Positions 35,985-63,879 are shown, numbered from the stretch's first letter. The stretch is 64,000 bases of DNA from Candidatus Gottesmanbacteria bacterium (GCA_963701185.1 OY969569.1:383054-447053); one strand, 5' to 3'. Notes: a model not told the origin generated them from the letters alone. Numbers and translations: made by a program.

Positions 35985-36012
35985 TGTTTTAATGTTTTAA
36001 AACATTAAAACA
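35985..36012. repeat. 28-bp perfect palindrome copy A (tgttttaatgttttaaaacattaaaaca)
   Basis: Read directly. Intergenic between tyrS and recG. Confidence 0.9.
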
Positions 36013-36053
36013 GAGAAATTAAACCTTGCAGACATTACTGATATAATCACCGT

Positions 36054-37991
36054 ATGGAACTTACGCTTGAAAGCCCGGTCCGGTACGTGCCGCACATCGG
36101 GCCGGTGATGGCAACCAGACTTATTAATCTCGATATTTTTACCGTTCGGGATCTTCTGTACCACGTGCCTTTCCGCTACGACGATTTTTCCGTTGTTCTG
36201 CCGATTTCAGCCGTCCGGCCGGGGGAAACAGTCACCGTCAACGGGACGATCCAAACGATCAAAAATTTCTTTACCAAAACCGGCAAAAAAATACAGGAAG
36301 CAAAAGTGACGGACGCCTCCGGGACGCTGACCGTCATCTGGTTTAACCAGATGTATTTATTGAAAATTCTTCATCCCGGCGACGAACTTCACCTGTCCGG
36401 AAAAATCGACTGGTTCGGAAGTAGAATCGTCATGAGCAATCCTTCGTATGAGCAGGGGACGTCGCTCCATACTGGGCGGCTGGTTCCGGTCTATCCAGAA
36501 ACGGCAGGGGTGTCTTCCAAATGGCTCCGAAGCCGGATCGCTTTCCTTCTGGAAACTATTACTGTTGTCGATTTTCTTCCCGACGCCATCCTGAATGAAT
36601 ATCATTTGATGCCGCTTCCGGATGCTGTTTCCGCGGTCCATTTTCCCGACAATAAAGAGGATATCGAGCGCGGCCGGCACCGGATCGCATTTGATGAAGT
36701 CTTTCTATTACAACTTCGAGCGTATGAACAGAAACGCGTATGGAAGGAAACACAAAAAGCAAAAATCATTACTCCTGTCAACATTCCCACCATTCCTTTT
36801 ATGTTAACCCGTGATCAGAATCGCGCGATCGCGGAAATTCTTGGTGACCTCAAACAACCCATCCCGATGAACCGCATACTCGTCGGCGACGTGGGAAGCG
36901 GGAAAACCGTTGTCGCGGCAACTGCCATGTATGCCGCGTATAAAAGCAAACTGATGTCGCTTCTTATGGCCCCGACACAAATTTTGGCCGAGCAGCACTT
37001 TCAAACCATTTCGCAGCTGCTTTCGCCGTACGGTATTCGGGTTGGACTTGTGACCGGAAACACAAAAACCGAGGGCGATATTCTCGTGGGCACGCATGCG
37101 CTCCTCACACACCCATACAAAAATGTCGGCCTTGTTGTCATCGACGAACAGCACAGATTTGGGGTTGAACAAAGAGCTCAACTCGTAGGCAGCAAAAAAA
37201 TCACGCCGCATTTTCTTACGATGACGGCAACACCTATACCAAGAACAATCGCAAAGACTTTATTGGGAAATATGGACGTATCCGTTCTGAATGAAATGCC
37301 CAAAGGCCGCCGCACCGTTAAAACCTGGATTGTGCCGCCAACCAAACGGACAGCGGCGTACGATTGGATCAGGAAGCAGCCGGGCCAGGTTTTTATCATC
37401 TGTCCTCTGATTGAAGCATCCGATACACTCACGGAGGTGAAGGCCGTCAAAGAAGAATACGAAAAAATAAAAAAGATTTTTTCGGCTGTTGGCCTCCTGC
37501 ACGGAAGAATGGCCGCCGCGGAAAAAACACGGGTATTGGATAACTTCCGTAAGAAAAAAATCATGGTTCTTGTGGCAACTCCCGTCGTTGAAGTCGGCAT
37601 TGATATTCCCAATGCAACCATCATGGTTATCGAAGGAGCTGACCGGTTCGGGCTGGGACAGCTGCATCAACTCCGCGGCCGCGTGGGGCGGGGGGACCAG
37701 CAATCCTATTGTTTACTCTTTACCCAAACAGATGACGAAAAAACGCTTATCCGCCTCAAATCCCTCGAAACGATTCACAACGGACCGGATCTGGCCGACG
37801 TGGATTTGAAGCTACGGGGCCCGGGTGAAGTCTTCGGTACCCGGCAACACGGCATGCCGCACTTTAAGATTGCCTCCTTCACCGATATGGCGACCATGAA
37901 TGAAGCGCAGGAGGTACTTCATCATCTGCCACCTGCCCTCTTGAGGACGCTCGCCAAAACAGCTATAATAGACAATGTCAGTAAAGACTAA
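36054..37991 (+). CDS. recG: ATP-dependent DNA helicase RecG
   Basis: Wedge domain, Walker A GDVGSGKT, DEQHRFGV box, and the C-terminal TRG motif region. Confidence 0.9.
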   Translation: MELTLESPVRYVPHIGPVMATRLINLDIFTVRDLLYHVPFRYDDFSVVLPISAVRPGETVTVNGTIQTIKNFFTKTGKKIQEAKVTDASGTLTVIWFNQMYLLKILHPGDELHLSGKIDWFGSRIVMSNPSYEQGTSLHTGRLVPVYPETAGVSSKWLRSRIAFLLETITVVDFLPDAILNEYHLMPLPDAVSAVHFPDNKEDIERGRHRIAFDEVFLLQLRAYEQKRVWKETQKAKIITPVNIPTIPFMLTRDQNRAIAEILGDLKQPIPMNRILVGDVGSGKTVVAATAMYAAYKSKLMSLLMAPTQILAEQHFQTISQLLSPYGIRVGLVTGNTKTEGDILVGTHALLTHPYKNVGLVVIDEQHRFGVEQRAQLVGSKKITPHFLTMTATPIPRTIAKTLLGNMDVSVLNEMPKGRRTVKTWIVPPTKRTAAYDWIRKQPGQVFIICPLIEASDTLTEVKAVKEEYEKIKKIFSAVGLLHGRMAAAEKTRVLDNFRKKKIMVLVATPVVEVGIDIPNATIMVIEGADRFGLGQLHQLRGRVGRGDQQSYCLLFTQTDDEKTLIRLKSLETIHNGPDLADVDLKLRGPGEVFGTRQHGMPHFKIASFTDMATMNEAQEVLHHLPPALLRTLAKTAIIDNVSKD

Positions 37992-37994
37992 TAT

Positions 37995-38195
37995 ATGGCT
38001 CCATTACCCAAAAGACGGCATAGTACACGCCGCGGCGGCAAACGACAGGCCGCGATTAAACTCGGATTACCGAAAATTATGGTGTGTCCCAATTGCGGAA
38101 AACCCAGGCTCCCGCACCGGGCCTGCGGCACCTGCGGGTATTACGGCGGGAAAGAAGTGGTGAAACAAAGGATAGTAAAAGCAAAAAAAGCGTGA
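37995..38195 (+). CDS. rpmF: ribosomal protein L32
   Basis: CPNCG...CGTCGYY zinc ribbon. 66 aa. Confidence 0.8.
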   Translation: MAPLPKRRHSTRRGGKRQAAIKLGLPKIMVCPNCGKPRLPHRACGTCGYYGGKEVVKQRIVKAKKA

Positions 38196-38545
38196 AGACT
38201 TCCAACGACCCCAGACACCAACATAGGCGGCAGATGATGGACAGCCTGTTTGCGTTTAGCTTTGACAATAAGCAGGTCGCACCGGATATACAGCACATCC
38301 TGCCGGCATTGCCTGCTATTGATGAACGGATCGCGAGTGCGGCTCCGGAATGGCCTGTTGATAAAATCGCAAAAATAGATTTGGCGGTGTTGCGGCTTGC
38401 CGTATATGAGCTCACTGTTGAAAAAAAGGAACCTCCGAAAGTCATCATCGATGAGGCGATTGAACTTGCCAAAGAATACGGCAATGAAAATAGCTCAAAA
38501 TTCGTCAACGGCGTTTTAGGAAATATTTTAAAATCACTTTCATGA
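38192..38545 (+). CDS. nusB: transcription antitermination factor NusB
   Basis: DLAVLRLAVYEL and EAIELAKEYG helices. The GTG start at 38192 (overlapping the rpmF stop) is inferred and uncertain. Confidence 0.65.
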   Translation: MKTSNDPRHQHRRQMMDSLFAFSFDNKQVAPDIQHILPALPAIDERIASAAPEWPVDKIAKIDLAVLRLAVYELTVEKKEPPKVIIDEAIELAKEYGNENSSKFVNGVLGNILKSLS

Positions 38546-39228
38546 CATTTGAAGATTTACAAAAAAATATTCATGTTACGTTTAAAAATCCGGAGCTTTT
38601 GAAGCTCGCATTCATCCACCGCTCGTCCCTCAACGAGGCAAAGCATCTCCATACATCCAATGAACGTCTGGAATTTTTGGGTGACGCGGTCCTGTCGCTT
38701 TTAACGTCGCATTTTCTCTACAGCGCATATCCGGAATATCCGGAAGGAACACTCACCAATATCCGCTCCAGCCTGGTCAAAACCACGAGTTTGAGTGATA
38801 TTTCAAAATCGTTGGGACTGGGAGAACTCCTTTTCTTAAGCCACGGCGAAGAATCCTCAGGGGGACGAACCAACCAGTCGCTCCTTGCGGACGTATTTGA
38901 AGCGCTTTTGGGCGCGATCTATCTGGATCAGGGGATAGAAACTGCCGGAAAATTTTTGGAGAAATTCCTCTTTCCCACGGCTGAAGGCATTATCGCCACG
39001 AAATCGTATATCGATTATAAGAGTTTACTTCAGGAGCTTATCCAGGAGAACTCGCGGATCGCGCCGTCGTACCACGTCGTCAGAAGCGAAGGCCCTGACC
39101 ACGCACGGATGTTTTGGGTAGAGGCGAGAGCGGCTGAGCGAGTACTGGGAGCCGGATCCGGTAAATCAAAACAGGAAGCGGAGCAGAGGGCCGCCCTTGT
39201 CGCTCTTGAGAAGATGGGTAAAATCTGA
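38542..39228 (+). CDS. rnc: ribonuclease III
   Basis: Signature ERLEFLGDAVL plus a C-terminal dsRBD. Confidence 0.9.
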   Translation: MTFEDLQKNIHVTFKNPELLKLAFIHRSSLNEAKHLHTSNERLEFLGDAVLSLLTSHFLYSAYPEYPEGTLTNIRSSLVKTTSLSDISKSLGLGELLFLSHGEESSGGRTNQSLLADVFEALLGAIYLDQGIETAGKFLEKFLFPTAEGIIATKSYIDYKSLLQELIQENSRIAPSYHVVRSEGPDHARMFWVEARAAERVLGAGSGKSKQEAEQRAALVALEKMGKI

Positions 39229-39240
39229 TATCATGAGAGC

Positions 39241-39471
39241 ATGTTAAAAATCCGACTGACGCAAACAGGCACAACCAACCGCAAAAGCTACCGGGTGATT
39301 GCCATTGAGGAAGGCAAGCGCCGCGACGGGAAAGCAATCGAAAATCTGGGATATTTCAACCCGCTGGTGAAGCCGCCTCAGATTGTCATCGACCGGGAGC
39401 GTGTCGCGTATTGGGTATCCCACGGCGCCCAGGTAACGCCCGCAGTCGAAAAACTCCTCAAAGGGTCCTAA
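39241..39471 (+). CDS. rpsP: ribosomal protein S16
   Basis: MLKIRLTQTGTTNRKSYRVIA... Confidence 0.9.
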   Translation: MLKIRLTQTGTTNRKSYRVIAIEEGKRRDGKAIENLGYFNPLVKPPQIVIDRERVAYWVSHGAQVTPAVEKLLKGS

Positions 39472-42694: not shown

Positions 42695-43513
42695 TTATTG
42701 GGAAAACGATCCCTCACTATATACTGCATAATCAAAAAGAGATGCCGGGGCGCGATATTGCTTATAGGCAACTATTTTTCTGTTTACATCGCTTCCGGAC
42801 GTACCGGTAGATTCGATTCTGCTTCCCTGCTCCGGAAGAACCTGCGCGGGGGCGACAGCGATACGTGCTCCGCTATACACCGGCCGGATGCGAAGTGCGA
42901 TGAGCGTATCAGACGCAGGAGTGATTCCCAAATCAGAAAATGTCATCGTGGCGGAATATGCGGTATTTGTGGTGCAGCCGCCGGCCGCCGCCGCGGAAAA
43001 ATTATTTGACCGGGAATCCGGATCATATGCTGCTTTGGCTACCTGGTATGATCCGCCGAATTTACGGTAAAGAATGGAAACAGCGACAGCAGGATTCGGC
43101 GATTCGCTGCTCCAACATACGCCTATCGTATTTACCGTATATGTAGGCGTCTCTACGATGAGACCGGTCGATGGATCATGATTCACCAACCATACGGTTT
43201 CGGTGTCCTGTTTTAATGTTTTTTGAGGAAACTCGAACGGACTGGCGCTCCCGCCCACGGGGGTAACCGCCACGTTATATTTCACCCCTAACGCCGAATC
43301 GAGCGTATCTGCACTCGCAATACCTGATTTAAGACCTTCTTCGATTCCTGCTTCCGCCGCGGAAAATGCTCGGCTTGACTCTTCTACATTCCGGGTCACG
43401 GAAACATCGGTCGTTGACCTGGCAATAAGTGACAATCCCACGGTCGTTGCCACCATCAACACCAAAAGGGAAATAAGTGCTATTTGACCTGATTGTTTGT
43501 TCTTTCGAACCAT
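42695..43513 (-). CDS. PilX-like minor pilin / pilus assembly protein (PilX_N-type N-terminus)
   Basis: KQSGQIALISLLVLMVATTVGL hydrophobic N-terminus. 272 aa. Confidence 0.45.
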   Translation of the reverse strand: MVRKNKQSGQIALISLLVLMVATTVGLSLIARSTTDVSVTRNVEESSRAFSAAEAGIEEGLKSGIASADTLDSALGVKYNVAVTPVGGSASPFEFPQKTLKQDTETVWLVNHDPSTGLIVETPTYTVNTIGVCWSSESPNPAVAVSILYRKFGGSYQVAKAAYDPDSRSNNFSAAAAGGCTTNTAYSATMTFSDLGITPASDTLIALRIRPVYSGARIAVAPAQVLPEQGSRIESTGTSGSDVNRKIVAYKQYRAPASLFDYAVYSEGSFSQ

Positions 43514-48782: not shown

Positions 48783-50637
48783 TGTCGCCGATACAATCGC
48801 GATAGGTACGTGCCTCATAATAGGTAATGGTACTGTCCGGTACGAGGCTTACTTTTTTTGCCGATTCAAATGCAGCGAGCGCCTCTGTGCATTTTTTTTG
48901 GAAAAGCCGCGTCACGCCTTCATACGTATAGGCATTTGCAAGCTCTCCGTCTCCGGCAACCGATACTGCGGCGCTAAACTGATCATACGCTTCATCCAAC
49001 ATGCCCGCGCGCATGAGTGCCGTCCCCAATGCAATCCGCGATCCGGCATACACATCACGCACATCCGAGAGCATGAGGTGATTATACCGCGATAATATAC
49101 CCGATGTCGGATCGTGCATTGTTTTCCACATCGCAAGATTCTCTTCATACATAGCGGAGGGCGACGGCTGCTCTTTTTCATCCACCAATTCATAGGTTAA
49201 CCCGTACGGCACCCAATACCATCCCGAACCGACAGAGAGCGGCGTGTTTGAAAATATCCGTCTCTTTGATCGTTGGGTCGTCACGAGATTCATCGTTGCG
49301 TCGCCGGTTCCCTGAAACGTAAGATCGGGAAATATCCCCTTCAGTGTCATCTGATAATCAGGTGACTGTAACCGGTTTACGTGAAGTGCAACAATGTCCG
49401 GACGAAAAGACAGGGCATAGCGCATATACTGCGTACTAAAGAGCGTCGAATCACGGCTTAAAAAAAGAATGCTTCCGGCGGGCAGCGGCGAGAGAATGTC
49501 GAGCCCGAGATTATCTGCCGTCCTGTCGGCCGGCAATCCATAAAACCGCCAGAATGTCACACCGAGCTGACTGACGGGGTAGAGGAATATGATCACAGAT
49601 GCAACAATAAGAACAACCGGCCTTGCGCGGAAATATTTCCCTGATGCAATCTCTCCCAGTCCGATACCGGCCACGACAACAAAGAGGACATACGACGGCA
49701 GTAAAAACCGCTCATATGTGCCGAGCGTAAACCGGCTGACCAACGGAAAGCTCGCATAAAAGAAAAAGAGGGGACCCAAAAAAAGGAGGGCAAGAACAAA
49801 AAAGCTGCAAAGCCTGCGGTCGCGCTTCCATAATGAAAAACATCCAAGCGACATAAGGAGGATTCCGACCCAGGTAAAATCCAATACTATTAACTGTGCA
49901 TATGCCTGAATCTGAAGTAAACGTTGACTGAGCTGGAGTCCGGCGCCGGCGCCGGACATAAAGGTGCCGTAGTCAGCCCGTGTCACCAGACGGATAAATC
50001 CACTCATGTCTACAGGACGGTCCCAATTAATAATCGAGTGTCCGCGGGCGGCGACAAATACGTATGCGTACGGCACCAAACCCGCCAAAAACCACCATAC
50101 CGTTGATAGCCGCACTCTGTTACCCCACAGCCGGTAGATCGCAGCCGGAACCAAAAATAGTATCATGTGATGATGCGTAAGGGCCAATCCGAAGACGAAT
50201 GCGATAAGGGAAAGAGAACTCCTGCGGATCAAAAGATATACCAAGATAATAACAAAAAGATCAAAAAGTCCAAATACTTCCGGCGTGACGCTGTAGAGGA
50301 AAAACAGGTAATTACCCAAGAGCAAAACCGCGCTGAATAATCCGATGAATTTCCGCTTCGTCAGTGAAGAAACAAGCAGATACACACATCCGACCGCGAT
50401 CGCGTGCGGCAGGCTCGACAATAATCCTACCCTCCAGGCAGGAGTAAATAAAGACAATTGAGAGGCAATCCAGCCGAAAAACGTATACAGCGGATATCCG
50501 GGAGGGTGGGCAACGCCGAACGTGGCCGCCGCCGTCACGAGATCCCCTGAATCGCCGCCGACAATACCTTGTGCCTGAAACAAGAGGAATGTAATGAATG
50601 AGAATAAACCGACAAGTGCCGCCAAAACGCTCTCCAT
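48706..50637 (-). CDS. DUF2723/PMT-like membrane glycosyltransferase with C-terminal TPR repeats
   Basis: N-terminal GGDSGDLV (the GDSGE-like motif of the DUF2723/TMTC family). About 11 TMs. C-terminal TPR-like helices. Confidence 0.55.
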   Translation of the reverse strand: MESVLAALVGLFSFITFLLFQAQGIVGGDSGDLVTAAATFGVAHPPGYPLYTFFGWIASQLSLFTPAWRVGLLSSLPHAIAVGCVYLLVSSLTKRKFIGLFSAVLLLGNYLFFLYSVTPEVFGLFDLFVIILVYLLIRRSSLSLIAFVFGLALTHHHMILFLVPAAIYRLWGNRVRLSTVWWFLAGLVPYAYVFVAARGHSIINWDRPVDMSGFIRLVTRADYGTFMSGAGAGLQLSQRLLQIQAYAQLIVLDFTWVGILLMSLGCFSLWKRDRRLCSFFVLALLFLGPLFFFYASFPLVSRFTLGTYERFLLPSYVLFVVVAGIGLGEIASGKYFRARPVVLIVASVIIFLYPVSQLGVTFWRFYGLPADRTADNLGLDILSPLPAGSILFLSRDSTLFSTQYMRYALSFRPDIVALHVNRLQSPDYQMTLKGIFPDLTFQGTGDATMNLVTTQRSKRRIFSNTPLSVGSGWYWVPYGLTYELVDEKEQPSPSAMYEENLAMWKTMHDPTSGILSRYNHLMLSDVRDVYAGSRIALGTALMRAGMLDEAYDQFSAAVSVAGDGELANAYTYEGVTRLFQKKCTEALAAFESAKKVSLVPDSTITYYEARTYRDCIGDTIRAQELFDAYDAASGKTQTPLEKL

Positions 50638-51149
50638 TACTGGATGCAGTAGAAGCAGTCGGACGTCGCACCTGCGCCGGTGCCGGATTTACAGGTCGTA
50701 ATCGATGTCCCGCCGCTTATATCATAGACCGTATTGGGATCAATCTGAAACCCTTTGGATTGCGGCTTGAAACAGGTGTGGAGAGATTCTCCGCCGGTGC
50801 TATACACATAGATGCCGTTCGGTCCGCCTGTGGCAGCCTGTGCAAGCGTCAAAAAGCCGGTCTTTAGTTCTCCCGCTTGTTCCAGTGCGTTGACGTATCC
50901 CGTCACAGACGCATCGCCGATTGACGTTGGTCCCACCATGCTGGTATTCCACGGAAACTGCCCTTTGGTAGAATAATACCGCAGGTTGGCATTATAAAAT
51001 TCCGAGAGTGTATTTCGTGTCGATGTGTCCCGGCCTTTTTTGAGCTGTTCAAACGGATCAATAGCGGCAAGCAATCCAACTGCAAGAGCGCCGAGAAGTG
51101 CGATGACAATAAGAAGTTCAATAAGCGTGAATCCTCGTGTTGATTTCAT
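50637..51149 (-). CDS. type IV pilin (third PilA-like gene)
   Basis: RGFTLIELLIVIALLGALAV. C-terminal disulfide-loop Cys residues. Confidence 0.75.
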   Translation of the reverse strand: MKSTRGFTLIELLIVIALLGALAVGLLAAIDPFEQLKKGRDTSTRNTLSEFYNANLRYYSTKGQFPWNTSMVGPTSIGDASVTGYVNALEQAGELKTGFLTLAQAATGGPNGIYVYSTGGESLHTCFKPQSKGFQIDPNTVYDISGGTSITTCKSGTGAGATSDCFYCIQ

Positions 51150-51211
51150 AATAAATAATCTCCTTTATTTACTTGTATCATTGTATTTATCCCCATGTCA
51201 ATAGGGGTAAA

Positions 51212-52423
51212 TTATTTAAATGAACTGGTTAAATTGTAAATCGGCGTAATCACGGAAATGACGATAAATCCCACGCCCACACCCATAATGACCATGATAA
51301 TCGGCTCAATCGCCGTCGTGAGACCTTTGACTAATATTTCCGTCTCCGACTGGAAATATTTTGAAAGCTTTATCAGGGTCTCATCAAGTTTCCCGGTTTC
51401 TTCGCCGACCTTCATCATTTGGGAAACGATCGGCGGAAATACCGCATACCGGGCAAACGAATCTCCGAGCGGATATCCTTTCTCCACTTTTTTGGAAATT
51501 TCATCGATTGCATTCCGAAACACGACGTTCCCGAGAGAATTTTTCAGTATGTGCAGCCCCTCAAGAATATGGATGCCGGATGCCACAAGCATTCCGAGCG
51601 TCCGCGTAAAATCGACAAGTATGATTTTTTTCTGGAGTTCCCCAAACAAGGGAATTTTAAAGACAAGCTGGTCAACGACGAGTTCCCCGAAAGGAGTTTT
51701 TCGCCACCGCTGAAAGAGTACTGCTGCCGCTCCTATAACAAGAATCATGAACCACCAAAAACGGACAAAAAAATCCGACAGAGACATAAGGAATCGGGTA
51801 GTCAACGGAAGCTGGATATTAAAATCTTTATATAACCCCGTGAGTTTCGGCATCACGACGGTCATCATCACGAATATAACGCCGATCATACCAATGAGAA
51901 TGATCACCGGATAGATCATGGCGCCGGACACTTTTCCCCGGAAATCCCGTTGGGCTTCGAGTGTTTCGGACAGTCTGGTGAGAATCTCATCCAACGTCCC
52001 GGAGGATTCTCCTGCCCGTACCAGGGCAATATAGGTTGTTGAAAAGTACCGGGGATACTTGGCAAGTGCGTCACCGAGGTTGCCTCCCGATACAATCTGA
52101 TGTTCCATATCCAGCAATATGTCAGAAAAAACTTCGTTCGTCGTCTGGGTGCGCAGTATTGTCAGTGATTCAGGAAGCGACAATCCCGCGACAACCATCG
52201 TCGCAAGCTGCCTTGTGAAGTTAACAATATCGTTGAAGGTAACCCGCTTAAAGTGTTCCTGAATTTTGGCAAGCGAAATTCCCTCTTTCGATACGTGGAT
52301 CCCGACGACAAATAACTGTTTCTCATGAAGAAGACGAATAGCAACTTCCTGCGACGGGGCTTCTACCAGCCCTGTCACTGTTTTTCCGTCTCCTCCCCGT
52401 GCTTTGTACTGAAAAAATGGCAT
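51212..52423 (-). CDS. pilC: type IV pilus platform protein PilC (GspF family)
   Basis: Two GspF repeats, three TM. 403 aa. Confidence 0.85.
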   Translation of the reverse strand: MPFFQYKARGGDGKTVTGLVEAPSQEVAIRLLHEKQLFVVGIHVSKEGISLAKIQEHFKRVTFNDIVNFTRQLATMVVAGLSLPESLTILRTQTTNEVFSDILLDMEHQIVSGGNLGDALAKYPRYFSTTYIALVRAGESSGTLDEILTRLSETLEAQRDFRGKVSGAMIYPVIILIGMIGVIFVMMTVVMPKLTGLYKDFNIQLPLTTRFLMSLSDFFVRFWWFMILVIGAAAVLFQRWRKTPFGELVVDQLVFKIPLFGELQKKIILVDFTRTLGMLVASGIHILEGLHILKNSLGNVVFRNAIDEISKKVEKGYPLGDSFARYAVFPPIVSQMMKVGEETGKLDETLIKLSKYFQSETEILVKGLTTAIEPIIMVIMGVGVGFIVISVITPIYNLTSSFK

Positions 52424-52429
52424 ACCCTT

Positions 52430-53485
52430 TTACCCTTGTTTAAGCAGTCGGTTTAATTCTTCCGGCTGCAGGGCATAACTTTGCGCCACCTCAAGGCTGA
52501 TCTTGCCTTCGCGGATCGCCCGGGCCAGCGCCCCCTCGAGGGTCACCATGCCGAGTTCCGCAGATGTCTGGATAATGTTATCAATAAGATGTGACTTGCC
52601 GTCGCGGATTGTCGTTTTAATGGCAGGCGTTGCGGTCATAATCTCCGCGACCGGCACCCGACCGCCCGAAATGGCGGGGATAAGCCGCTGGGACAATACG
52701 CCTTCAATAACAGCCGACAACTGCAGCCGGATCTGTATCTGCTGATTTTCCGGAAACACATCAACGATGCGGTCGATAGTTTGGCTCGCTGAATTGGTGT
52801 GAAGAGTCGCAAATACCAAATGCCCGGTTTCCGCAATGGTGAGGGCGGCCTGAATAGTCTCCAAATCCCGCATCTCGCCGATCAGGACCACATCGGGGTC
52901 TTCCCGAAGAACACTTCGCAGAGCCACGTTCCAGGAATGGGTATCCTGATGCATTTCCCGCTGGGAAATCACCGATACTCCCGGCGGATACACATATTCG
53001 ATGGGATCTTCGATGGTCACCACATGAACGGACCGCATCTGGTTAATCGTATTGATCATGGACGCAAGCGTTGTCGACTTTCCCTGACCGGTCGGACCGG
53101 TCACCAACACAAACCCCTGCCGGAGCTTCACAAACTCGTGACAGATGGACGGCAATCCCAATTCCTCGATTGACTTAATTTTGTCGGGAATGAGACGGAA
53201 ATCCGCGGCAACAGATTCTTTTTGATAATAGACGTTTGCACGGAACCGGTTTTTGCCGAATGCGACCGAATAATCAATCTCTTTATTCGTGAGAAATATA
53301 TCTTTTTCTCCCTCGGTAAACGTGGGGAAAATAAGCGATTCCGTATCCTGGGGGGTCAAAGGGGGAATATTGGGAATCGACACCAATTTTCCGGACACCC
53401 GCAGGACCGGCGGATACCCCACGACCAGATGGAGATCAGAGGCAGAAACCCGTAATGCTTCAGAAAATAATGCTTTAATATCCAT
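52430..53485 (-). CDS. pilT: twitching motility ATPase PilT
   Basis: Walker A GPTGQGKSTT, Asp box and His box. 351 aa. Confidence 0.85.
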   Translation of the reverse strand: MDIKALFSEALRVSASDLHLVVGYPPVLRVSGKLVSIPNIPPLTPQDTESLIFPTFTEGEKDIFLTNKEIDYSVAFGKNRFRANVYYQKESVAADFRLIPDKIKSIEELGLPSICHEFVKLRQGFVLVTGPTGQGKSTTLASMINTINQMRSVHVVTIEDPIEYVYPPGVSVISQREMHQDTHSWNVALRSVLREDPDVVLIGEMRDLETIQAALTIAETGHLVFATLHTNSASQTIDRIVDVFPENQQIQIRLQLSAVIEGVLSQRLIPAISGGRVPVAEIMTATPAIKTTIRDGKSHLIDNIIQTSAELGMVTLEGALARAIREGKISLEVAQSYALQPEELNRLLKQG

Positions 53486-53487
53486 AG

Positions 53488-55209
53488 TTAATCCTCCGCG
53501 ACCCGAAGCACTTCTTCTATCGTTGTTATCCCCTCAATCACTTTCATATAGCCATCCTGTTTTATCGTCATCATACCCTCCTTTACCGCTGCCTGCTGAA
53601 TGGCGTCCATTGATGCCCGTGTGGCGATCAATCGGGAAACTTCCATAGATATCGGCAATACTTCAAATATACCGATCCGGCCCAAATATCCGGTACCAAC
53701 ACAGGCACTACACGGTGCGCCATTGACCGTTCCTTTTCCCCGGTATAATTTCAGGGAGGCCCCTTTTGATAATAGCACACCCAAAACTTCGGTCATATCT
53801 TTTTTCACTGCTTCCTCCGGATCATATTCTTCTTTACAGGTCGGGCAAATTTTGCGGGCGATCCGCTGACCCACAACGCAATTGAGGCTGGAAACGATAA
53901 GGAACGGTTCGGCTCCCAGGTCGAGAAGTCGCGGAATGGCACCCGCCGCATTGTTCGTATGGAGTGTCGAAAATACGATATGCCCGGTAAGCGCCGCCTG
54001 AATGGCAAGCTCTGTGGTTTCCCGGTCGCGGATTTCTCCCACAAGAATAACATTGGGATCCTGACGCAAAAACGCCCTCAGGCCAGTGGCGAATGTGAGT
54101 CCGGCCGTAGGATTAATCTGTACTTGATTGACACCGGGAATTTCGTACTCAACCGGATCCTCAAGCGTCATAATGTTCACCCGCGTGTTATTTAACTTCG
54201 ACAACACAGCATAGAGTGTTGTTGTTTTTCCACTCCCGGTCGGGCCGGTAACGAGGATAATGCCGTGCGGGCGGGTGATCTGCGCTTCCAGATTTTTGAG
54301 CGCAAGGCCGCGCAGTCCCAACTCCGGGAGTGTCGGAATCCCGCCGGATTTTTTAAGGAGGCGCATAACGATTTTCTCCCCGTGTACGGTCGGCAGCGTG
54401 GATACACGAAGATCCACTTCTTCCTCACCCATTTTAAAGTTAAAGCGGCCGTCCTGGGGAATACGTTTTTCATCAATTTTCATGTCTGCAAGAATTTTGA
54501 TACGCGAGACCACGGCATCCTGCAGGCGCTTGGGCAGAACCAATCGCTCCTGCAATATACCGTCCACCCGATAGCGGACGCGGGTTTCGCCGACCTGCGG
54601 CTCAATATGGACATCCGATGCGCGAAGGTGGATGGCCTGCTCAAGGGTCGCCGAAACAATTTGGGCAATGGGTGCCTCACGGATCACTTCACCCAACCGA
54701 CCCGCCTCGTATGTTTTGACTTCGGGTTCGATTGATTCCTTCAGGGCCGCCGTAACATCCTCACCGAGATTCTGTGAGTACGTTTCTTCTATAGCACTCA
54801 AGATATCGTCTTTGAGTGCCATAAAGGGGTGAATCCGTTTCCCTGATTTCTTTTCGATAAATTCGATCACCTGAAAATCCAACGGATCGACCATGGCGAC
54901 GGACAGCTCGCTGGCTTCGGCGTCAAATTCAAACGGGATGAGAACGTATCGCCGGGCCACGGGTTCCGAAATGAAATTACCGATCGCCGGAGCAATCGCC
55001 CGTCCCGCAAGCGTGACAAACGGGACATTTAATGCTTTCGCCTTTGCTTTGGCAAGATCCCCCTCGGTGACCAACCGTTTTTTGACAAGAATATCTTCAG
55101 CAGGAGCCCCGGTAGACAGGGATTCCGTCATCACCGCATCTGCCTGCGCCTGAGCGATACGGCCGTCGGCGACGAGTGCGGTGAGAATTGATTGGGCAGT
55201 TGCGGGCAT
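53488..55209 (-). CDS. pilB: type IV pilus assembly ATPase PilB (GspE family)
   Basis: N1/N2 domains. Walker A GPTGSGKTTT. Tetracysteine CPTC...CSACVGTG. Confidence 0.9.
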   Translation of the reverse strand: MPATAQSILTALVADGRIAQAQADAVMTESLSTGAPAEDILVKKRLVTEGDLAKAKAKALNVPFVTLAGRAIAPAIGNFISEPVARRYVLIPFEFDAEASELSVAMVDPLDFQVIEFIEKKSGKRIHPFMALKDDILSAIEETYSQNLGEDVTAALKESIEPEVKTYEAGRLGEVIREAPIAQIVSATLEQAIHLRASDVHIEPQVGETRVRYRVDGILQERLVLPKRLQDAVVSRIKILADMKIDEKRIPQDGRFNFKMGEEEVDLRVSTLPTVHGEKIVMRLLKKSGGIPTLPELGLRGLALKNLEAQITRPHGIILVTGPTGSGKTTTLYAVLSKLNNTRVNIMTLEDPVEYEIPGVNQVQINPTAGLTFATGLRAFLRQDPNVILVGEIRDRETTELAIQAALTGHIVFSTLHTNNAAGAIPRLLDLGAEPFLIVSSLNCVVGQRIARKICPTCKEEYDPEEAVKKDMTEVLGVLLSKGASLKLYRGKGTVNGAPCSACVGTGYLGRIGIFEVLPISMEVSRLIATRASMDAIQQAAVKEGMMTIKQDGYMKVIEGITTIEEVLRVAED

Positions 55210-55223
55210 AGTACAATACCATT

Positions 55224-55838
55224 ATGCATGCTTTCCTTCTTGTTGGCAATAATCCTCAAGAAGAACTGGAATCCCGTGTTGCCGCATGGAAAATTTCTCC
55301 ATGGGACATACACCGGCCAGGAGGCGCAGGCATTGCGGATATCCGCGCGTTGTGCCGCGACCTGTCTCTCGCCCCGCGCGGCTACGAGCACGTAGGCATT
55401 ATCGAACACATGGAGCTTCTGACTCCTGAAGCGCAAAATGCGCTTTTAAAAACACTCGAAGAGCCCCCGCCGCATACATATATTATAGGGACCACTCACA
55501 TGCCAGAGGCGCTCTTGCCCACCGTCCGGTCACGGATGACTATTATTACAGTAAAAAATACTATCAAAAAGTCAGATGCAACAAGTCTATTAAAATTATT
55601 ACAGGAGTCTGCAGGGCAACGCCTCTCAACGCTTGAACCGTTTGTTGCCACGCGCGACGATGCGAAAATTTTTGTCACCGCGCTTCTTGATGCAACCCAT
55701 GAAGAACTTCTCACACATCCATCACCGCGCCTTACCAAACTCATCCGAAATCTCCTCGCCGCCCAGTCCCAACTCGCGGTCAACGTCAATCCGCGGCTGG
55801 TTGTCGACAACGCAGTACTACAAGGAGAGTCCTCGTAG
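55224..55838 (+). CDS. holB: DNA polymerase III delta-prime subunit-like (short AAA+ lid-only form)
   Basis: LLKTLEEPP and RSR sensor motif. 204 aa. Its stop overlaps a short hairpin and is 4 nt from palindrome copy B. Confidence 0.6.
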   Translation: MHAFLLVGNNPQEELESRVAAWKISPWDIHRPGGAGIADIRALCRDLSLAPRGYEHVGIIEHMELLTPEAQNALLKTLEEPPPHTYIIGTTHMPEALLPTVRSRMTIITVKNTIKKSDATSLLKLLQESAGQRLSTLEPFVATRDDAKIFVTALLDATHEELLTHPSPRLTKLIRNLLAAQSQLAVNVNPRLVVDNAVLQGESS

Positions 55839-55841
55839 TCC

Positions 55842-55869
55842 TGTTTTAATGTTTTAAAACATTAAAACA
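55842..55869. repeat. 28-bp perfect palindrome copy B
   Basis: tgttttaatgttttaaaacattaaaaca read directly. Preceded by tcctcgtagtcc. Confidence 0.9.
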
Positions 55870-55941
55870 AAGTTCACCAATCCACCCGGAGGGTGTATTG
55901 TCTAATTGTGTTACACTAAAGTATAGGAGGTACGTAGTACT

Positions 55942-56463
55942 ATGGCAGAATTTCCAATCAAAGATTTACCAATCGGTCCGAACCCCGGTCAACAAAACAT
56001 GGATAAAGTTGTTGCTAGTATAAATGATATGGTAAGAACAAAAATGGGAGCCTTGCCGGACACAGGACCAGCAGGTAGACATTTTCTTGATGGCGAGCAC
56101 AGTTTCTTTGGCTATAACGGCGTTGTTGTCCGTGAAGGGAAAATTGTATCATTGGTAAATCTCAATGGGGATGAGGATATTCCGCCTATCAATTTGGATA
56201 CGGAAATCACGATAGAAGGAGATTCGCGAGGGTATGTCAGTTCCGGGCATAAGCCTGGGGATAGAGTAAAAGTTATAGGATTTATTGAGCCCAATTTTAA
56301 AGCGGCAGAAGGCATACGGTCTTCCGACAAAATAATACAAGTGGAGGGGGCTGGAACAGTCGGATGGATAAAACCATCAGAATTTGACAAACAACTTCTC
56401 AAAAAACAACAGGAAGAAGAGATTGGGAAATTGTTTAATCCACCTAAACAGGAAGAGGGTTAG
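55942..56463 (+). CDS. hypothetical protein (173 aa), AT-rich cassette ORF between palindrome copies B and C
   Basis: Intact ORF with no TM and no recognised motif. Compositionally AT-rich versus its flanks. Confidence 0.5.
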   Translation: MAEFPIKDLPIGPNPGQQNMDKVVASINDMVRTKMGALPDTGPAGRHFLDGEHSFFGYNGVVVREGKIVSLVNLNGDEDIPPINLDTEITIEGDSRGYVSSGHKPGDRVKVIGFIEPNFKAAEGIRSSDKIIQVEGAGTVGWIKPSEFDKQLLKKQQEEEIGKLFNPPKQEEG

Positions 56464-56549
56464 GTTCCTTTATTTTCTAGCACCAGCACCGCCAGGAGCT
56501 AAAACCCCGGAAAAAACTTTTGATTTTTGTTCATTAAATATTTTCATAA

Positions 56550-56572
56550 CCTACGAGGATACTCCTCGTAGG
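56550..56572. repeat. hairpin cctacgagga-tac-tcctcgtagg (10-bp stem) abutting palindrome copy C
   Basis: Read directly. An imperfect homolog (ctacaagga-gag-tcctcgtag) sits at 55818-55838 before copy B. Confidence 0.7.
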
Positions 56573-56574
56573 CC

Positions 56575-56602
56575 TGTTTTAATGTTTTAAAACATTAAAA
56601 CA
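56575..56602. repeat. 28-bp perfect palindrome copy C
   Basis: Identical to copies A, B and D. Confidence 0.9.
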
Positions 56603-56624
56603 AACGTTATGATATATTTAGCGC

Positions 56625-56897
56625 ATGACAGAGCGAAAAGACATATATTTAGATAATTTTGAACAGCTTTGTCCATTAGTGAAAATAGGATGGATGCCGC
56701 TCTATCCTACGGGAAGTAATCCGCAAAATATAAATATCTTACTGACAAAGGAATTTCCTGAATTTCAGGATAAAGAAACTGAGGGCGCTGCTGCGGATGC
56801 CGTAGCTATGACGTGCTCCGATTGTGAGTATGCACATTCAAACCCCCTAACAAACACAGTATGTTTTTCTAATCAAGGAGTTCCGGAAATAGTGTAA
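56625..56897 (+). CDS. hypothetical small Cys-containing protein (90 aa)
   Basis: AT-rich ORF. Four Cys (C16, C64, C67, C80) could form a Zn site. Confidence 0.4.
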   Translation: MTERKDIYLDNFEQLCPLVKIGWMPLYPTGSNPQNINILLTKEFPEFQDKETEGAAADAVAMTCSDCEYAHSNPLTNTVCFSNQGVPEIV

Positions 56898-56993
56898 CAG
56901 CAGTTATATATGTATCTGTTAAAGGAATTGAAGTGTAAGAAATTTGATTCGTTTGCCTAGACAACCATCCTCAAGTATTGTACAATGATTTAG

Positions 56994-58946
<1,953 letters not shown>

Positions 58947-59032
58947 TATGAGCTAGCTGACACGTCCGTGGCATCGGGGCAAAAAATGCAACATTGGATA
59001 TATAATGGTTGAAATTATTTGAAAGGAGTTCT

Positions 59033-61045
59033 ATGAATCTTATAACACTATCACTTATTGCCGGCGCTGCATCTGTCCTGTACGGTTTATTTTTGGCGGC
59101 GAAAATTATTAAACTTCCGACGGGCACACCCGACATGAATGCCATCGCCGATGCCATAGCAGAAGGCGCGCAGGCATTCCTCAGGCGGCAATATACAACG
59201 ATCGGACTTCTTTCGGTTGCCATTATTATCCTTTTATACGTTGCCCTTGGCATGTATTCCGCCGTCGCGTTCGCAATTGGTGCGCTGTTGAGCGCCACTG
59301 CGGGATTTATCGGCATGAATATCTCCGTCCGGGCAAATATCCGTACGGCAGAAGCCGCTAAAACCGGACTGGCCGAGGCTCTCGGCGTGGCATTTTCCGG
59401 CGGATCCGTCACCGGACTCATGGTCGCGGGTCTCGCGCTTCTTTCCGTTGCCATAACCTATCTTGTGATCGGCCGCGGCGCTGCGTCCGGCTTTGACCTT
59501 AAACCGCTCGTGGCTCTCGGGTTCGGCGGATCGCTCATTTCAGTATTTGCACGTCTCGGGGGCGGCATTTACACCAAAGGCGCGGATGTCGGTACGGATA
59601 TGGTCGGAAAAATCGAAAAAGGCATTCCTGAGGATGATCCGAGAAACCCCGGCGTAATTGCGGATCTGGTCGGCGATAATGTCGGCGATGATGCCGGCAT
59701 GGCCGCGGATTTATTTGAAACGTACGTTGTCACGGCTGTCGCTGCGATCCTGTTGGGGCATCTCTTATTACCCGGATTTACAAACGCGCTTTTCTTCCCC
59801 ATGGCGGTCGGAGCGGCGGGCATTGTCGCTTCCATTGTAGGAACCTGGTTCGTGACGCTCGGGAAAAATAAAAAAATAATGCCTGCGCTCTATAAAGGGC
59901 TTCTCACTGCGGCATTAGTATCTGCCGTTCTTTTTTATATGATCACGAATGTGCTCATGACCGGCAACGGCCTTTATTCAAACATGAATTTGTTTCTTGC
60001 GAGCCTTATCGGCATCATGGTTACGATCGGGATGGTCGCCATAACCGAGTTTTATACGTCGAAAGCCTATGGCTCCGTCAAACATCTGGCCGAAGCCAGC
60101 ACGACGGGACACGGAACCAATATCATCGCAGGACTCGCGCTTTCCATGAAATCAACCCTGCCGGCGGTACTTCTTATCGCGGCGGCAATGCTTGGCGCAT
60201 ATGCCCTTGCCGATCTCTACGGCATTGCCGTGGCAGCTATGGCCATGATATCGCTCACAGGCATTGTGGTTGCGATTGACGCATTCGGTCCGATTACGGA
60301 TAACGCAGGCGGCATTGCGGAAATGACCAACCAGCCTGAAAAAGTGCGTGCCATCACGGATGCACTGGACGCCGTGGGCAATACGACCAAAGCAGTGACA
60401 AAATCCTACGCCATCGCATCGGCAGGACTAGCTGCACTCGTCCTGTTTGCCTCCTACACGCAGGAACTCACAGGGGCAAATGCAGGACTGACGTTCAGCC
60501 TGTCTGATCCCAATGTCGTCGTAGGACTTCTCATCGGTGCCTCCCTGCCGTATGTCTTCGGTGCGCTTGCCATGGAAGCCGTCGGAAAGGCAGCCGGAGC
60601 CATTGTCGTTGAAGTACGCAGACAATTTAAAACATTGAAAGGGATTATGACGGGAAAACAAAAACCAGAATACGGACGTGCGGTTGATATTGTTACGACT
60701 GCCGCCCTTCATGAAATGATTGTGCCTGCACTTCTTCCTGTTGCGGCACCAATTGCGGTCGGATTTTTGTTGGGACCGTCCGCGCTCGGAGGGCTGCTCA
60801 TGGGAACCATTGTCACGGGCTTGTTTGTCGCCCTCTCGATGACAACCGGCGGAGCGGCCTGGGATAACGCGAAAAAGTATATTGAGGAAGGGCATCTGGG
60901 CGGCAAAGGTTCACCGGCTCATCAGGCAGCAGTCACCGGAGATACGGTCGGAGATCCGTACAAAGATACAGCGGGGCCTGCCATTAATCCCATGATTAAG
61001 GTCGCCAATATCGTTGCATTGCTCATTGCCGGGTTTTTACGATAA
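59033..61045 (+). CDS. hppA: membrane-bound proton-translocating pyrophosphatase (likely K+-independent, GNTTK)
   Basis: [19 protein letters not shown] and [15 protein letters not shown] motifs. 16 TM. ATG at 59033 with a gaaaggag RBS. Confidence 0.85.
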
Positions 61046-61049
61046 AGAT

Positions 61050-63566
61050 ATGAACATCGGGAAAGTTAACCAATCGGAAATTACGCATGAAATGCAGAAG
61101 TCGTATCTGGACTATGCAATGAGCGTCATCGTGGCGCGTGCCCTTCCGGACGTGCGTGACGGCATGAAACCCGTCCATCGGCGCATTCTTTTCGCCATGC
61201 ACCAGACGGGGCTTCACCACACGAGCAAATACAAAAAAAGCGCGTCGGTCGTGGGAGAAGTACTCGGAAAATATCATCCGCACGGAGACGCACCCGTCTA
61301 TGAAGCAATGGTACGCCTCGCACAGGAATTTTCCATGCGGTACCGGCTCATCGACGGTCAGGGTAATTACGGCTCCATTGACGGCGACCCTCCTGCCGCC
61401 ATGCGGTACACCGAGTGTCGGCTGGCTGCAATTTCCGATGAAATGCTTCTGGATATTGAAAAGGAAACGGTGGAGTTTACCCCGAATTTTGACGGATCGA
61501 TCAATGAACCCGTGTATCTCCCTGCAAAACTGCCGAACCTGCTCCTGATGGGCAGCGAGGGCATTGCCGTGGGCATGGCGACCAAAATCCCGCCGCACAA
61601 TCTCACGGAGGTAGCTTCAGCCATCGCGGCGCTCATCGACACGGTCAAGCTGACGAAGAAAAAGGCAACCGAGGGAGTAAGCGAGATAAAAACAGATACG
61701 CAGTTTTCATTCGATATCACGACTGACCAGCTCATGGAACACATCCAGGGGCCGGATTTCCCGACTGCGGGCGCCATTTATGACATTAATGAGATTAAGC
61801 TGGCCTACACGACAGGCCGCGGCAAAATCGTCATGCGGGGCAAGGCTGAAATAGAGGATATCGGTCAGGGAAAAAGCGCCATCGCCATTACGGAACTTCC
61901 GTACCAGGTGAATAAAGCAGTGCTGGTCGCCAGAATCGCCGAGCTTGTGCGGGAGAAAAAACTTGACGGCATTTCGGACCTCCGCGATGAGTCCGACCGC
62001 CGCGGCATCCGCGTGTACGTCGAACTCAAGCGCGATGCCCGGCCCAAACAGGTCCTCAACAATCTCTATAAATACACGGCGCTTCAGACCACATTTCCGG
62101 TTAATATGGTCGCACTCGTTGATAATACACCGCAGACCTGCTCCCTTAAGCTTATTTTGGAAGAATACGTCAAACACCGCCATGACATCGTGCGCCGCCG
62201 CAGTGTTTTTGAACTGAAGGAAGCCCGCGCCCGCGAACACATTCTGGAGGGCCTCAAAATTGCCGTCGACCACATCGACGAGGTCATCTCCATTATTAAA
62301 AAAAGCAAAGACGCCGATGAAGCAAAGGTCAAATTGATGAGCAAATTCAAGCTCTCCGATATCCAGACCACTGCAATTTTGGATATGCAGCTGCGGCGCC
62401 TCGCGGCCCTCGAACGGCAAAAAATCGAAGACGAACTGGCGATGATCCGGGAAACCATCAGCTACCTCGAGGACCTTTTGGCCCACCCGCAAAAAATATT
62501 AAAAGTCGTCAAGGACGAGCTTAATAAATTAAAAGAAAAATACGGTGATCAGCGAAAAACCCGCGTATTTAAGAGTAAAGTCGGCGAGTTTTCCGAAGAA
62601 CAGCTGATTGCCAATGAGGATGTCATTATCACGATGAGCGAGTCCGGGTATATCAAGAGACTCCCGCGCGGCACGTTTAAAATGCAGGAGCGAGGCGGCA
62701 AAGGCGTCATCGGCATGACGACCAAAGAAGAAGATACGATTGATAAAATCCTCACCGCACAAACCCACGACAACATGCTCTTTTTTACCGACCGCGGACG
62801 GGTATACCAGGTGCGTGTGTGGGATATCCCTGAGACCAGCCGGCAAGCCAAAGGCCAGGCGGTCGTCAACCTCATCAATATCGAATCGGGAGAAAAAGTG
62901 ACATCCGTACTTACCTACAGTTTGAAGCGCGATGAGCAGAAAGAATCCGGCGTCAAATTTATTCTCATGGCGACCAAACACGGCACCATCAAAAAATCAA
63001 AGTTGACGGAATACGAAAATATCCGCCGCAGCGGCCTGGTAGCAATTAAATTAGAAAAGGATGATGAACTGACCTGGGCCCGCGTAACCGGCGGGGCAGA
63101 CGATATTCTTCTCGTGTCTCACGAGGGTAAATCCATCAGGTTTGTTGAAACAGAAGTCCGGCCGACGGCCCGCGATACCATGGGGGTACGCGGAATACTT
63201 TTGAAAGGCTCCGACTTCGTCGTGAGCGTGGACGTCATCAATGACGAAACGAAGAAAGCGGATTTTCTCACGATTATGGAAAAGGGAATCGGTAAAAAAA
63301 CAGCGATCAAGGATTTTCCCCGCCAGAGGCGGGGCGGGCAGGGCGTGAAAGTCGCCGAGGTCAAAGACCGGACCGGCAAGGTCGTCGTCTCTCAAATTGT
63401 TCCCGCCGACACCGACAGCGTGATTTTGACATCCATGAAAGGCCAGGTCGTCAAGCTTCCGATTAACTCCGTGCCCCGCCTCGGCCGCGCAACGTCGGGA
63501 GTGATCTTAATGCGCTTCGCCGACAAAAGTGATACGATAGCCGCCGCCACGTGTTTGACGAAATAA
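61050..63566 (+). CDS. gyrA: DNA gyrase subunit A
   Basis: Catalytic-Tyr region AAMRYTE and C-terminal beta-pinwheel repeats. Start at ATG 61050, just after the hppA stop. Confidence 0.9.
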
Positions 63567-63569
63567 ACT

Positions 63570-63839
63570 ATGGAAATAAAAGAACTTGGTACACCTCCAT
63601 ACAAAGTAAGCAATGGGTACATACCGGATCTTCATGCCGGCAACGAACAATTTTCAACAGCGCCAGATTTCTTACACGCTTTAGATATTCTTAGGGATAT
63701 TAGTGAAAATGGAGAAGATAAAAAACCGTATGTCATTGATGCAAAAAACCAAAAAGTAGTTGATTTAACTAGTGACAATGGCGTGCAATTACTCAATAAT
63801 TTCATTACTGAATTGCAAAAAGGAAATATTCATATTTAA
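63570..63839 (+). CDS. hypothetical protein (89 aa), AT-rich, followed by palindrome copy D
   Basis: ORF with no known motif. 12 nt upstream of copy D. Confidence 0.4.
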   Translation: MEIKELGTPPYKVSNGYIPDLHAGNEQFSTAPDFLHALDILRDISENGEDKKPYVIDAKNQKVVDLTSDNGVQLLNNFITELQKGNIHI

Positions 63840-63851
63840 TCTCTTAAACGT

Positions 63852-63879
63852 TGTTTTAATGTTTTAAAACATTAAAACA
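63852..63879. repeat. 28-bp perfect palindrome copy D
   Basis: Identical 28-mer. Confidence 0.9.

Follow-up and report, generated by a model that had tools for sequence, protein, structure and literature searches.

The 64,000-nucleotide stretch of DNA analyzed here (the window) is bacterial chromosome carrying tyrS, recG, nusB, rnc, trmD, type IV pilus genes, holB, gyrB, an H+-pyrophosphatase gene, and gyrA. It also contains a 28-bp palindrome (TGTTTTAATGTTTTAAAACATTAAAACA) in four exact copies, the last of which overlaps the end of a gene for a TrpR/YerC-family protein; this palindrome and its association with that gene are our subject. The named database relatives of the window proteins are Candidatus Gottesmanbacteria and Microgenomates (candidate phyla radiation, CPR), and the window is a Candidatus Gottesmanbacteria-like CPR chromosome, not phage. 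A phage origin was rejected: positions 50000-64000 gave no megablast match in a phage collection, and neither the 28-mer nor a relative of the TrpR-like protein was found in viral contigs.

The palindrome is A+T-rich and perfect, with 14+14 symmetry and no loop, and can be written as TGTT-TTAA-TGTT-TTAA-AACA-TTAA-AACA. Copy 1 (35985-36012, given without strand, as are the others) lies between a conserved 26-aa micro-open reading frame (micro-ORF) and recG. Copy 2 (55842-55869) is located 3 nt after the holB stop codon and 72 nt before a 173-aa orphan ORF, and copy 3 (56575-56602) follows 111 nt downstream of the stop of that ORF, 22 nt before a 90-aa ORF that precedes gyrB. Copy 4 (63852-63879) sits between an 89-aa ORF and the convergent TrpR-like gene, of which it forms the downstream bracket. 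A fifth copy, at the window-equivalent position 64291-64317, about 290 nt past the window end, is carried by Logan contig L006, which matches window positions 58617-64000 at 100% identity and ends inside this copy.

A sequence-only reading of the window had reported the four identical copies, beginning at 35985, 55842, 56575, and 63852, as lying a few nucleotides downstream of an ORF stop and as all intergenic. The copies were confirmed, and 100 dinucleotide shuffles of the window gave 0 matches. The proximity to a preceding stop does not hold for copy 3, and copy 4 is not strictly intergenic, as the stop codon and last two codons of the TrpR-like gene fall inside its right arm. The window contained no additional match to the 28-mer at up to 3 mismatches. 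When the search was relaxed to the 16-bp core, allowing up to 3 mismatches, or to the pattern TGTT-N4-TGTT-N4-AACA-N4-AACA, allowing up to 2, the same four copies alone were recovered; the palindrome family is therefore all-or-none in the window.

The 3′ part of the TrpR-like gene occupies positions 63872-64000 on the minus strand, and the full gene, encoding 136 aa, spans the window-equivalent positions 63872-64282 (L006 5256-5666, minus strand), with copy 5 located 8 nt upstream of its start codon. The protein start, MAQISRHP, was assigned from the conserved N-terminus of homologues. A Trp_repressor domain (PF01371, E=1.4e-12, 47.9 bits against a cut-off of 27) was detected in the protein and in 45/45 of its database homologues. 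The AlphaFold model (predicted local distance difference test, pLDDT, 85.7) is all-helical with a helix-turn-helix (HTH). When this model was compared with the PDB using Foldseek, the best 26 matches were all TrpR or YerC-like (probability 0.99-1.0, target-normalised TM-score 0.56-0.83); the YerC-like top matches scored 0.75-0.83, and the matches included the operator complexes 1TRO and 1TRR. A phmmer search with the protein led to 3G1C, a TrpR-like protein from E. eligens. Scores against the curated NCBIfam models were below threshold for TrpR (TIGR01321, 28.8 bits against a cut-off of 67.25) and for YerC/YecD (TIGR02531, 19.1-39.5 bits against 42.2). Because it falls below both cut-offs, the protein is, as judged by sequence comparison, a separate and longer subfamily, the orthologue of neither TrpR nor YerC/HisR. 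No HUH/Y1 or other catalytic domain was found by domain searches or in the predicted fold.

A metagenome scan for the 24-bp core, of the kind that the sequence-only reading had proposed, retrieved 23 loci (related loci are designated by L numbers). Four of these palindrome-found loci (L012, L020, L025, and L027) each contain a homologue of the TrpR-like gene, at 84-51% identity, between two perfect copies that are 439-480 bp apart; because the loci were found by the palindrome, it is the second copy that constitutes an independent observation. L022 and L023, whose homologues are 33-32% identical, contain the site and a second, variant site. To control for ascertainment bias, loci were also retrieved via the protein alone, with the palindrome unused. 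In all eight protein-only lineages (L030, L031/33, L034-36, L037, L038, L039/40, L041/42, and L043/44), a perfect 24-34-bp palindrome was present just upstream of the gene, and the same palindrome recurred downstream in 7/7 lineages with downstream DNA. The homologous gene thus has a ~28-bp palindrome just upstream in 15 related lineages, and one downstream wherever DNA is available. In Gottesmanbacteria-like lineages, about 2-11 nt separate the end of the upstream copy from the start codon, which lacks a Shine-Dalgarno sequence. The downstream copy overlaps the stop codon or lies within about 15 nt after it, and the stop-codon arrangement of window copy 4 is also seen in L020, L025, and L038.

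The palindrome varies in sequence among these lineages, and its two arms vary together. L037 and L041, with proteins 69% and 56% identical to that of the window, carry the window 28-mer (arms TGTTTTAATGTTTT|AAAACATTAAAACA), and L030 and L031 (about 50%) carry TGTATTAATGTATT|AATACATTAATACA. The left arms of L038 (56%), L039 (41%), L043 (46%), and L034 (36%) are TGTTCTGATGTTTT, GGGAAAATGTTTT, TTGTATTCATGTATC (also written TGTATTCATGTATC), and TGCTACCATGATTC, respectively, and each is mirrored by its right arm. Across 17 distinct sites, 42 cells were changed on both arms, compared with 11.2+/-2.6 in shuffles (0/500), and only 3 cells were changed on one side. The core A8-T9-G10/C19-A20-T21 (ATG..CAT) is invariant across these sites, and nothing else is. 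At the protein level, the recognition helix carries S in both TGTATT-type proteins and N in the TGTTTT-type proteins. The TrpR-like gene adjoins gyrA in the window, L020, L025, L038, and L030 (gyrA 94-77% identical), and the palindrome type differs among them. Because gyrA synteny is kept while the palindrome type changes, site specificity changed in place along a vertical lineage. Extra 28-bp palindromes in L031/L033 (943-970) and L043 (1606-1633) have the same word structure and a sequence unlike that of the local bracket (TGTTACTATGTTTTAGAACATAGTAACA, TGTATCTATGTATCGATACATAGATACA); they may belong to a paralogue or reflect an older specificity.

Identity among the copies had been taken, from the sequence alone, as a sign of recent mobility or gene conversion and as an argument against an operator. 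The related loci point the other way. At the 3′ end of holB in L018, the orthologue of copy 2 is kept at 27/28 positions, with holB 67% identical and the flanks diverged, and the same 28-mer is kept alongside TrpR-like proteins down to 51-56% identity. The true repetitive extragenic palindrome (REP) copies of the window, in contrast, are 72-94% alike (repeat family D9), not identical. Because orthologous copies are kept amid diverged proteins and true REP copies are non-identical, the 28-mer owes its perfect identity to constraint and not to a recent spread.

Taken together, the bracket and its co-variation make it probable that the 136-aa TrpR/YerC-family HTH protein encoded between copies 4 and 5 uses the 28-bp palindrome as its operator. 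Binding by a dimeric protein was among the roles first suggested for the palindrome, and it is the one that the bracketing of a TrpR-family HTH gene, co-varying with its site across lineages, supports. Positions 1-20 and 9-28 each form a 20-bp near-palindrome with TGTW/WACA words 16 bp apart, in registers offset by 8 bp. Positions 1-20 also fit TTTA-N6-TAAA, the Firmicute HisR consensus, by pattern comparison only, and the downstream site of L030 keeps exactly one 20-bp register. Published TrpR/HisR operators are 20-bp palindromes (TGTAcTnGTnnACnAgTACA, TGTAnTArnnnnyTnTTACA, and cacTTTAnnnnnnTAAAgtg); autoregulation is frequent among these regulators, and each lineage has its own operator consensus, which co-evolves with the protein (PMC9413887). 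In the same comparison of patterns, each register has the layout of the E. coli TrpR operator, TGTACTAGTTAACTAGTACA, and of proteobacterial HisR sites, and 8 bp is the offset of tandem TrpR dimers (1TRR), with half-site spacing as given in PMC9413887. Because the four TGTW/WACA words of the 28-mer give two registers of TrpR geometry with an 8-bp offset, we infer that two homodimers could bind it in tandem, in overlapping registers 8 bp apart.

The placement of the copies suggests how such binding might act. In L012, L041, and L039, the upstream copy is preceded, at a distance of 5-12 nt, by a sigma-70-like -35/-10 pair; because promoter-like pairs precede the copy and the start codon follows it, an operator here would lie over the transcript start, in the position of a repressor. 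The upstream copy would then lie within the regulator's promoter or directly behind it and would mediate negative autoregulation. In the window, L020, L025, L027, and L031, the downstream copy lies between convergent genes, so it is no promoter operator there; it may block transcription entering or leaving the gene (as a roadblock or insulator), or cooperate with the upstream copy. The other copies would place the starts and ends of neighboring transcription units under the TrpR-like protein, these units being the recG operon, the two orphan ORFs, and the 90-aa ORF-gyrB-H+-pyrophosphatase-gyrA unit. Several more specific proposals were discarded. A bidirectional promoter within the palindrome (TTGTTT-N16-TAAAAC) was rejected because its outer -10 words are not kept in L038, L039, and L043; a fixed promoter-operator distance, because positions in a crude sigma-70 scan were heterogeneous; and helical phasing of the bracket copies, because their spacings of 436-533 bp have no common phase. 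A DNA-damage regulon, with recG in the window and uvrA in L026, was dropped because the other neighbors are unrelated (tsaC, SIMPL, pnp, tRNA, and orphans) and L045 has no site at recG. Among GTDB species representatives, the 24-bp core gave five singletons only, in unrelated metagenome-assembled genomes and without a TrpR-like neighbor; we treat these as chance or unrelated matches, and the species of the window is evidently not among the representatives.

Several observations do not sit easily with an operator. All sites are perfect and 64 kb contain no degenerate ones, which is untypical of operators, and the information in each site is far above the need of a regulon in a 1-Mb genome. Besides the regulator gene, no neighbor is common to the lineages, and no conserved regulon member was found among them. 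The gap to the downstream start is variable (8, 22, 41, 72, and 104 nt), and several sites are located between convergent genes. The outer words differ in L039, where the two-register model does not fit, and the recognition helices of L022 and L023 are quite different, yet the core of their sites is nearly window-type. Copies are also gained and lost: L045, with recG 80% identical and 22 kb fully syntenic, is without any copy, and the SIMPL-folD interval, which carries a copy in L030, has none in L037 and L038. Because copies are present or absent between relatives, new perfect 28-mers appear by insertion, not by point mutation, and the sites mark variable spots. In L028, the gyrA-folD interval has a solo palindrome with one mismatch (4744-4771) and lacks the TrpR-like gene, the arrangement that deletion between two bracket copies would be expected to leave; gyrA is 90% identical in this locus, and the interval also holds a 222-aa orphan ORF.

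The syntenic comparison called for by the sequence-only reading gave different outcomes for two copies: copy 2 is kept in L018, as described above, and copy 1 is absent in L045. The tyrS-recG spacer of L045 is 57 nt shorter and keeps both the 26-aa micro-ORF and a TATAAT hexamer 6 nt before recG. The micro-ORF (35893-35973) encodes a hydrophobic peptide, MLWKIIIVVASLALVASSFLPLLSLR (MFWKVIIVVASLALIASSFLPLLSLR in L045), and because it is conserved in L045 it is probably a real small membrane peptide gene. The hexamer (36042-36047, plus strand) starts 29 nt after the end of copy 1. No Shine-Dalgarno sequence is present before recG in either genome (window 36042-36056; L045 9985-10003), which, together with a TATAAT only 6 nt before the ATG in both, suggests a leaderless recG transcript.

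Around the remaining dispersed copies, gene content varies. Copy 3 is not found at the corresponding place in L018, and holB and gyrB, adjacent in L030, have intervening ORFs in the window and L018, which are not the same in the two. The ORFs beside copies are orphans with a G+C content 3-15 points below their surroundings and are non-homologous between relatives. Those of the window (55942-56463, 56625-56897, and 63570-63839) have a G+C content of 0.42, 0.40, and 0.34, compared with 0.51-0.53 for core neighbors, and belong to no family in Pfam, PHROGs, or NCBIfam; small neighboring ORFs in general also lack families in these databases, except for toxin-antitoxin protein fragments. The 90-aa ORF is 86.5% conserved in L018, and the 173-aa and 89-aa ORFs have no homologue among the other fetched loci. 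Overall, the palindrome numbers five copies in about 64 kb, and related loci have roughly one extra copy per 35 kb.

Gain and loss of this kind would fit a REPtron-like system, in which the palindromes are self-propagating repeats, selfish or domesticated, that arise by copy-and-insert events, not by regulatory selection, with the TrpR-like protein as their vertically inherited partner. The window holds a genuine REPtron (81-802), in which an ORF at 110-754 on the minus strand encodes a 214-aa IS200-like Y1_Tnp/RAYT (REP-associated tyrosine transposase; PF01797, E=2.4e-8) and is bracketed by 32-bp REP palindromes at 81-112 and 771-802 (TGAAGACTGTCTTTGTACAAAGACAGTCTTCA, CAAAGACTGTCTTTACGTAAAGACAGTCTTTG). 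The TrpR-like gene has the same architecture of a bracketed gene with dispersed copies. Those copies are perfect on an all-or-none basis, differ in occurrence among close relatives, the indels being about 57 nt long, and adjoin variable low-GC orphan ORFs; together with an abutting hairpin, the palindrome forms a 54-nt direct repeat (93% identical) around the 173-aa ORF, and L028 retains a solo copy with the gene missing. Co-evolution and vertical inheritance, the same pattern as in REP/RAYT systems, also count for this explanation (PMC3733652). Nevertheless, we consider it unlikely. The partner is a 136-aa all-helical HTH protein lacking a HUH/Y1 or other catalytic domain; the gene bracketed by the 28-mer contains PF01371 only, and the Y1_Tnp gene is bracketed by a different palindrome. 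REPs are defined by a GTAG/CGTC tag and an imperfect stem with a loop (PMC3733652), whereas the 28-mer (TGTTTT..AAAACA) has neither tag nor loop. Its density is low, at about 1 per 13-35 kb, no target-site duplications were found around single copies or the palindrome-gene-palindrome unit, and no copy is intragenic, unlike the true REPs of the window. Orthologous copies kept at 27-28/28 amid diverging flanks and proteins argue for purifying selection on host-side sequence.

True REP copies do enter genes. One, at 22429-22458, lies inside pheT (22317-24284) as an in-frame 7-aa insertion relative to L045 pheT, and another (L026 5656-5683) lies inside uvrA; both are intragenic REP insertions in a CPR genome.

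A combined model is, in our estimate, slightly less likely than the purely REPtron-like one. In it, the TrpR-fold protein and the perfect 28-mer would form a REPtron-like, vertically inherited partnership without a transposase, with the gene of the protein itself as the bracketed "master copy". New perfect copies would be seeded by insertion at transcription-unit boundaries, and the sites, being the same in different species, would anchor orphan cassette exchange and possibly act as protein roadblocks delimiting operons in such compact genomes.

The variable ORFs between holB and gyrB also raise the possibility of a recombination site, either dif-like for a single Xer recombinase or attC-like as a boundary for small ORF cassettes. 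At 28 bp, the palindrome has the length of dif and can be read as 11-bp arms around a 6-bp center, TTTAAA. The orphan ORFs in the holB-gyrB interval, which is closed in L030, are bounded by copies, a different ORF fills the same slot in L018, and the solo copy of L028 resembles a deletion product between two copies. An Xer-like tyrosine recombinase gene is located 4-5 kb away in L030 and L037, but none occurs within 10 kb in L031, L034, L039, L041, and L043, and the specificity of the site tracks the TrpR-like protein, not a recombinase. Perfect symmetry leaves no asymmetric core to confer directionality, several copies are found per 30 kb instead of one, and the features of attC (an imperfect stem, extrahelical bases, and an intI partner) are absent. 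We therefore view a recombination site as very improbable.

The least probable of the explanations that we weighed is a structural element without a dedicated protein, such as a DNA cruciform or an RNA hairpin serving as terminator, mRNA stabilizer, or supercoiling sink near the gyrase genes. The palindrome is a perfect hairpin as single-stranded DNA (-8.9 kcal/mol, z = -4.5), its arm symmetry survives sequence changes, it contains stop codons in all six frames, and its copies border transcription units on the 5′ as well as the 3′ side. The left arm of copies 2 and 3, moreover, supplies the T-tract of a 10-bp G+C-rich hairpin, CTACAAGGAGAGTCCTCGTAG. This hairpin occupies 55818-55838 (plus strand; families D7 and D10), encoding the last holB codons and abutting copy 2, and 56550-56572 (plus strand; D7), abutting copy 3, where a terminator scan matched the same positions and the single-stranded DNA fold is -19 kcal/mol. 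Hairpin and T-rich left arm together make an intrinsic-terminator-like composite. The original statement that no U-run follows and that the copies are not classic terminators accordingly stands for the palindrome itself, which does not qualify by the criterion of a G+C-rich stem plus U-tract, and needs amending for copies 2 and 3, which score as terminator-like with the preceding hairpin. Several features speak against a generic structure. No T-run follows any copy and the stem is weak and A+T-rich; an Rfam search of the window returned four tRNAs only, with no match for the palindrome. The excess of Watson-Crick changes on both arms (42 against 3 one-sided cells), with G-U-type changes rare, indicates a DNA dyad, not an RNA stem, and an invariant ATG/CAT core with lineage-specific sequence on both flanks of the gene is needless for a generic hairpin. 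A miniature inverted-repeat transposable element (MITE) was rejected, as the 28-mer alone is the unit, with no body bounded by terminal inverted repeats, no target-site duplication, and flanks that are unrelated except at copies 2 and 3. In sum, the MITE/REP and cassette roles first suggested for the palindrome lack a transposase or recombinase partner, a GTAG tag, a target-site duplication, and a repeat-bounded body, and what remains in their favor is the presence or absence of copies between close relatives, beside non-homologous low-GC orphan ORFs.

The hairpin that abuts copies 2 and 3 belongs to a third repeat family of the window, a CTAC...GTAG hairpin (CTACAAGGAnnnTCCTTGNAG) with members at 15498-15520, 22596-22618, 55818-55840, and 56551-56573; it also abuts the palindrome in L018. 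The member at 22596 coincides with a 5-aa pheT insertion relative to L045. A half-palindrome identical to the left arm, at 43209-43222 on the plus strand, lies inside a pilX-like coding sequence without a partner arm. Positions 43200-43222 match the left junction of copies 2 and 3 at 21/23 nt (repeat family D14), including 7/9 junction bases; this half-palindrome is either a relic or a chance match.

Other features of the window were recorded in passing. Relative to the intact gyrB of L030, window gyrB (57021-58946) is split into 4 reading frames by 3 frameshifts, of which at least the one near 58615 is outside any homopolymer; either the assembly is wrong here or this essential gene has become a pseudogene. 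A 2183-aa ORF (7527-14078) has internal repeats of roughly 290 nt, a 486-aa ORF (16281-17741) has collagen-like, GGN-rich 9-nt periodic repeats, and three 27-nt tandem repeats are found at 17873-17953.

Gene regulation in CPR/Patescibacteria is almost unexplored; these bacteria have few transcription factors and are hard to grow. No description of the present system was found in open-access papers and preprints. The TrpR-like protein and its palindrome offer a testable candidate regulator-operator pair conserved across Microgenomates, a group of uncultivated, ultra-small bacteria, and a natural series of protein and site variants (such as N to S in the recognition helix with TGTTTT to TGTATT in the site) from which the recognition rules of the TrpR fold could be worked out. 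Ordinary operators do not behave in this way: here the gene is bracketed on both sides, every site is perfect or absent, and sites come and go next to orphan genes. An explanation of these features would show more clearly how transcription units are delimited, or new genes acquired, in small genomes. The window further allows direct comparison with a true REP/RAYT element of the same genome.

Among known systems, REP/RAYT elements share the bracketing of a gene by its cognate palindromes, additional extragenic copies that usually lie just after stop codons, a protein-specific palindrome type, long-term vertical inheritance, and copies whose presence varies between relatives. The window system differs in that its partner is a non-catalytic HTH protein instead of a Y1/HUH transposase, and in that its palindrome is perfect, loop-less, and free of a GTAG/CGTC tag, with copies that are identical instead of 72-94% alike, never intragenic, and far fewer.

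A second parallel is the replication terminator protein (RTP) of B. subtilis and its Ter sites. RTP is a small dimeric protein whose sites of about 30 bp each comprise two overlapping dimer sites; its gene lies beside its own sites and is autoregulated, and a handful of further copies are dispersed within one chromosomal region. The window system resembles it in the small protein, taken to be dimeric, the putative overlapping dimer sites, the gene beside its sites, and the few dispersed copies. Ter, however, is asymmetric and polar and is bound by a winged helix, whereas the window site is perfectly symmetric, and there is no sign that the window is a replication terminus.

The closest likeness is to E. 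coli TrpR (1TRO, 1TRR; trp, aroH, and trpR operators) and Firmicutes HisR (YerC), which share the family (PF01371) and the fold. Their operators are dyad-symmetric, with TGTA/TACA or TTTA-N6-TAAA half-sites about 16 bp apart, one precedes the regulator's own gene, and the consensus is lineage-specific and co-evolving; for TrpR, the 8-bp register offset corresponds to tandem dimer binding. The window protein, in contrast, exceeds them in length by 30-50 aa; its N-terminus carries a conserved M-x-Q-I/V-S-R/K motif, its C-terminal helix is long, and its site is 28 bp instead of 20 bp and perfect throughout. Its gene is bracketed on both sides, its host is a CPR bacterium, and its neighbors include no amino-acid biosynthesis or transport genes. 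By family, symmetry, word structure, 8-bp register, and placement, the system nonetheless appears to work like a TrpR/HisR-type repressor and its operator.

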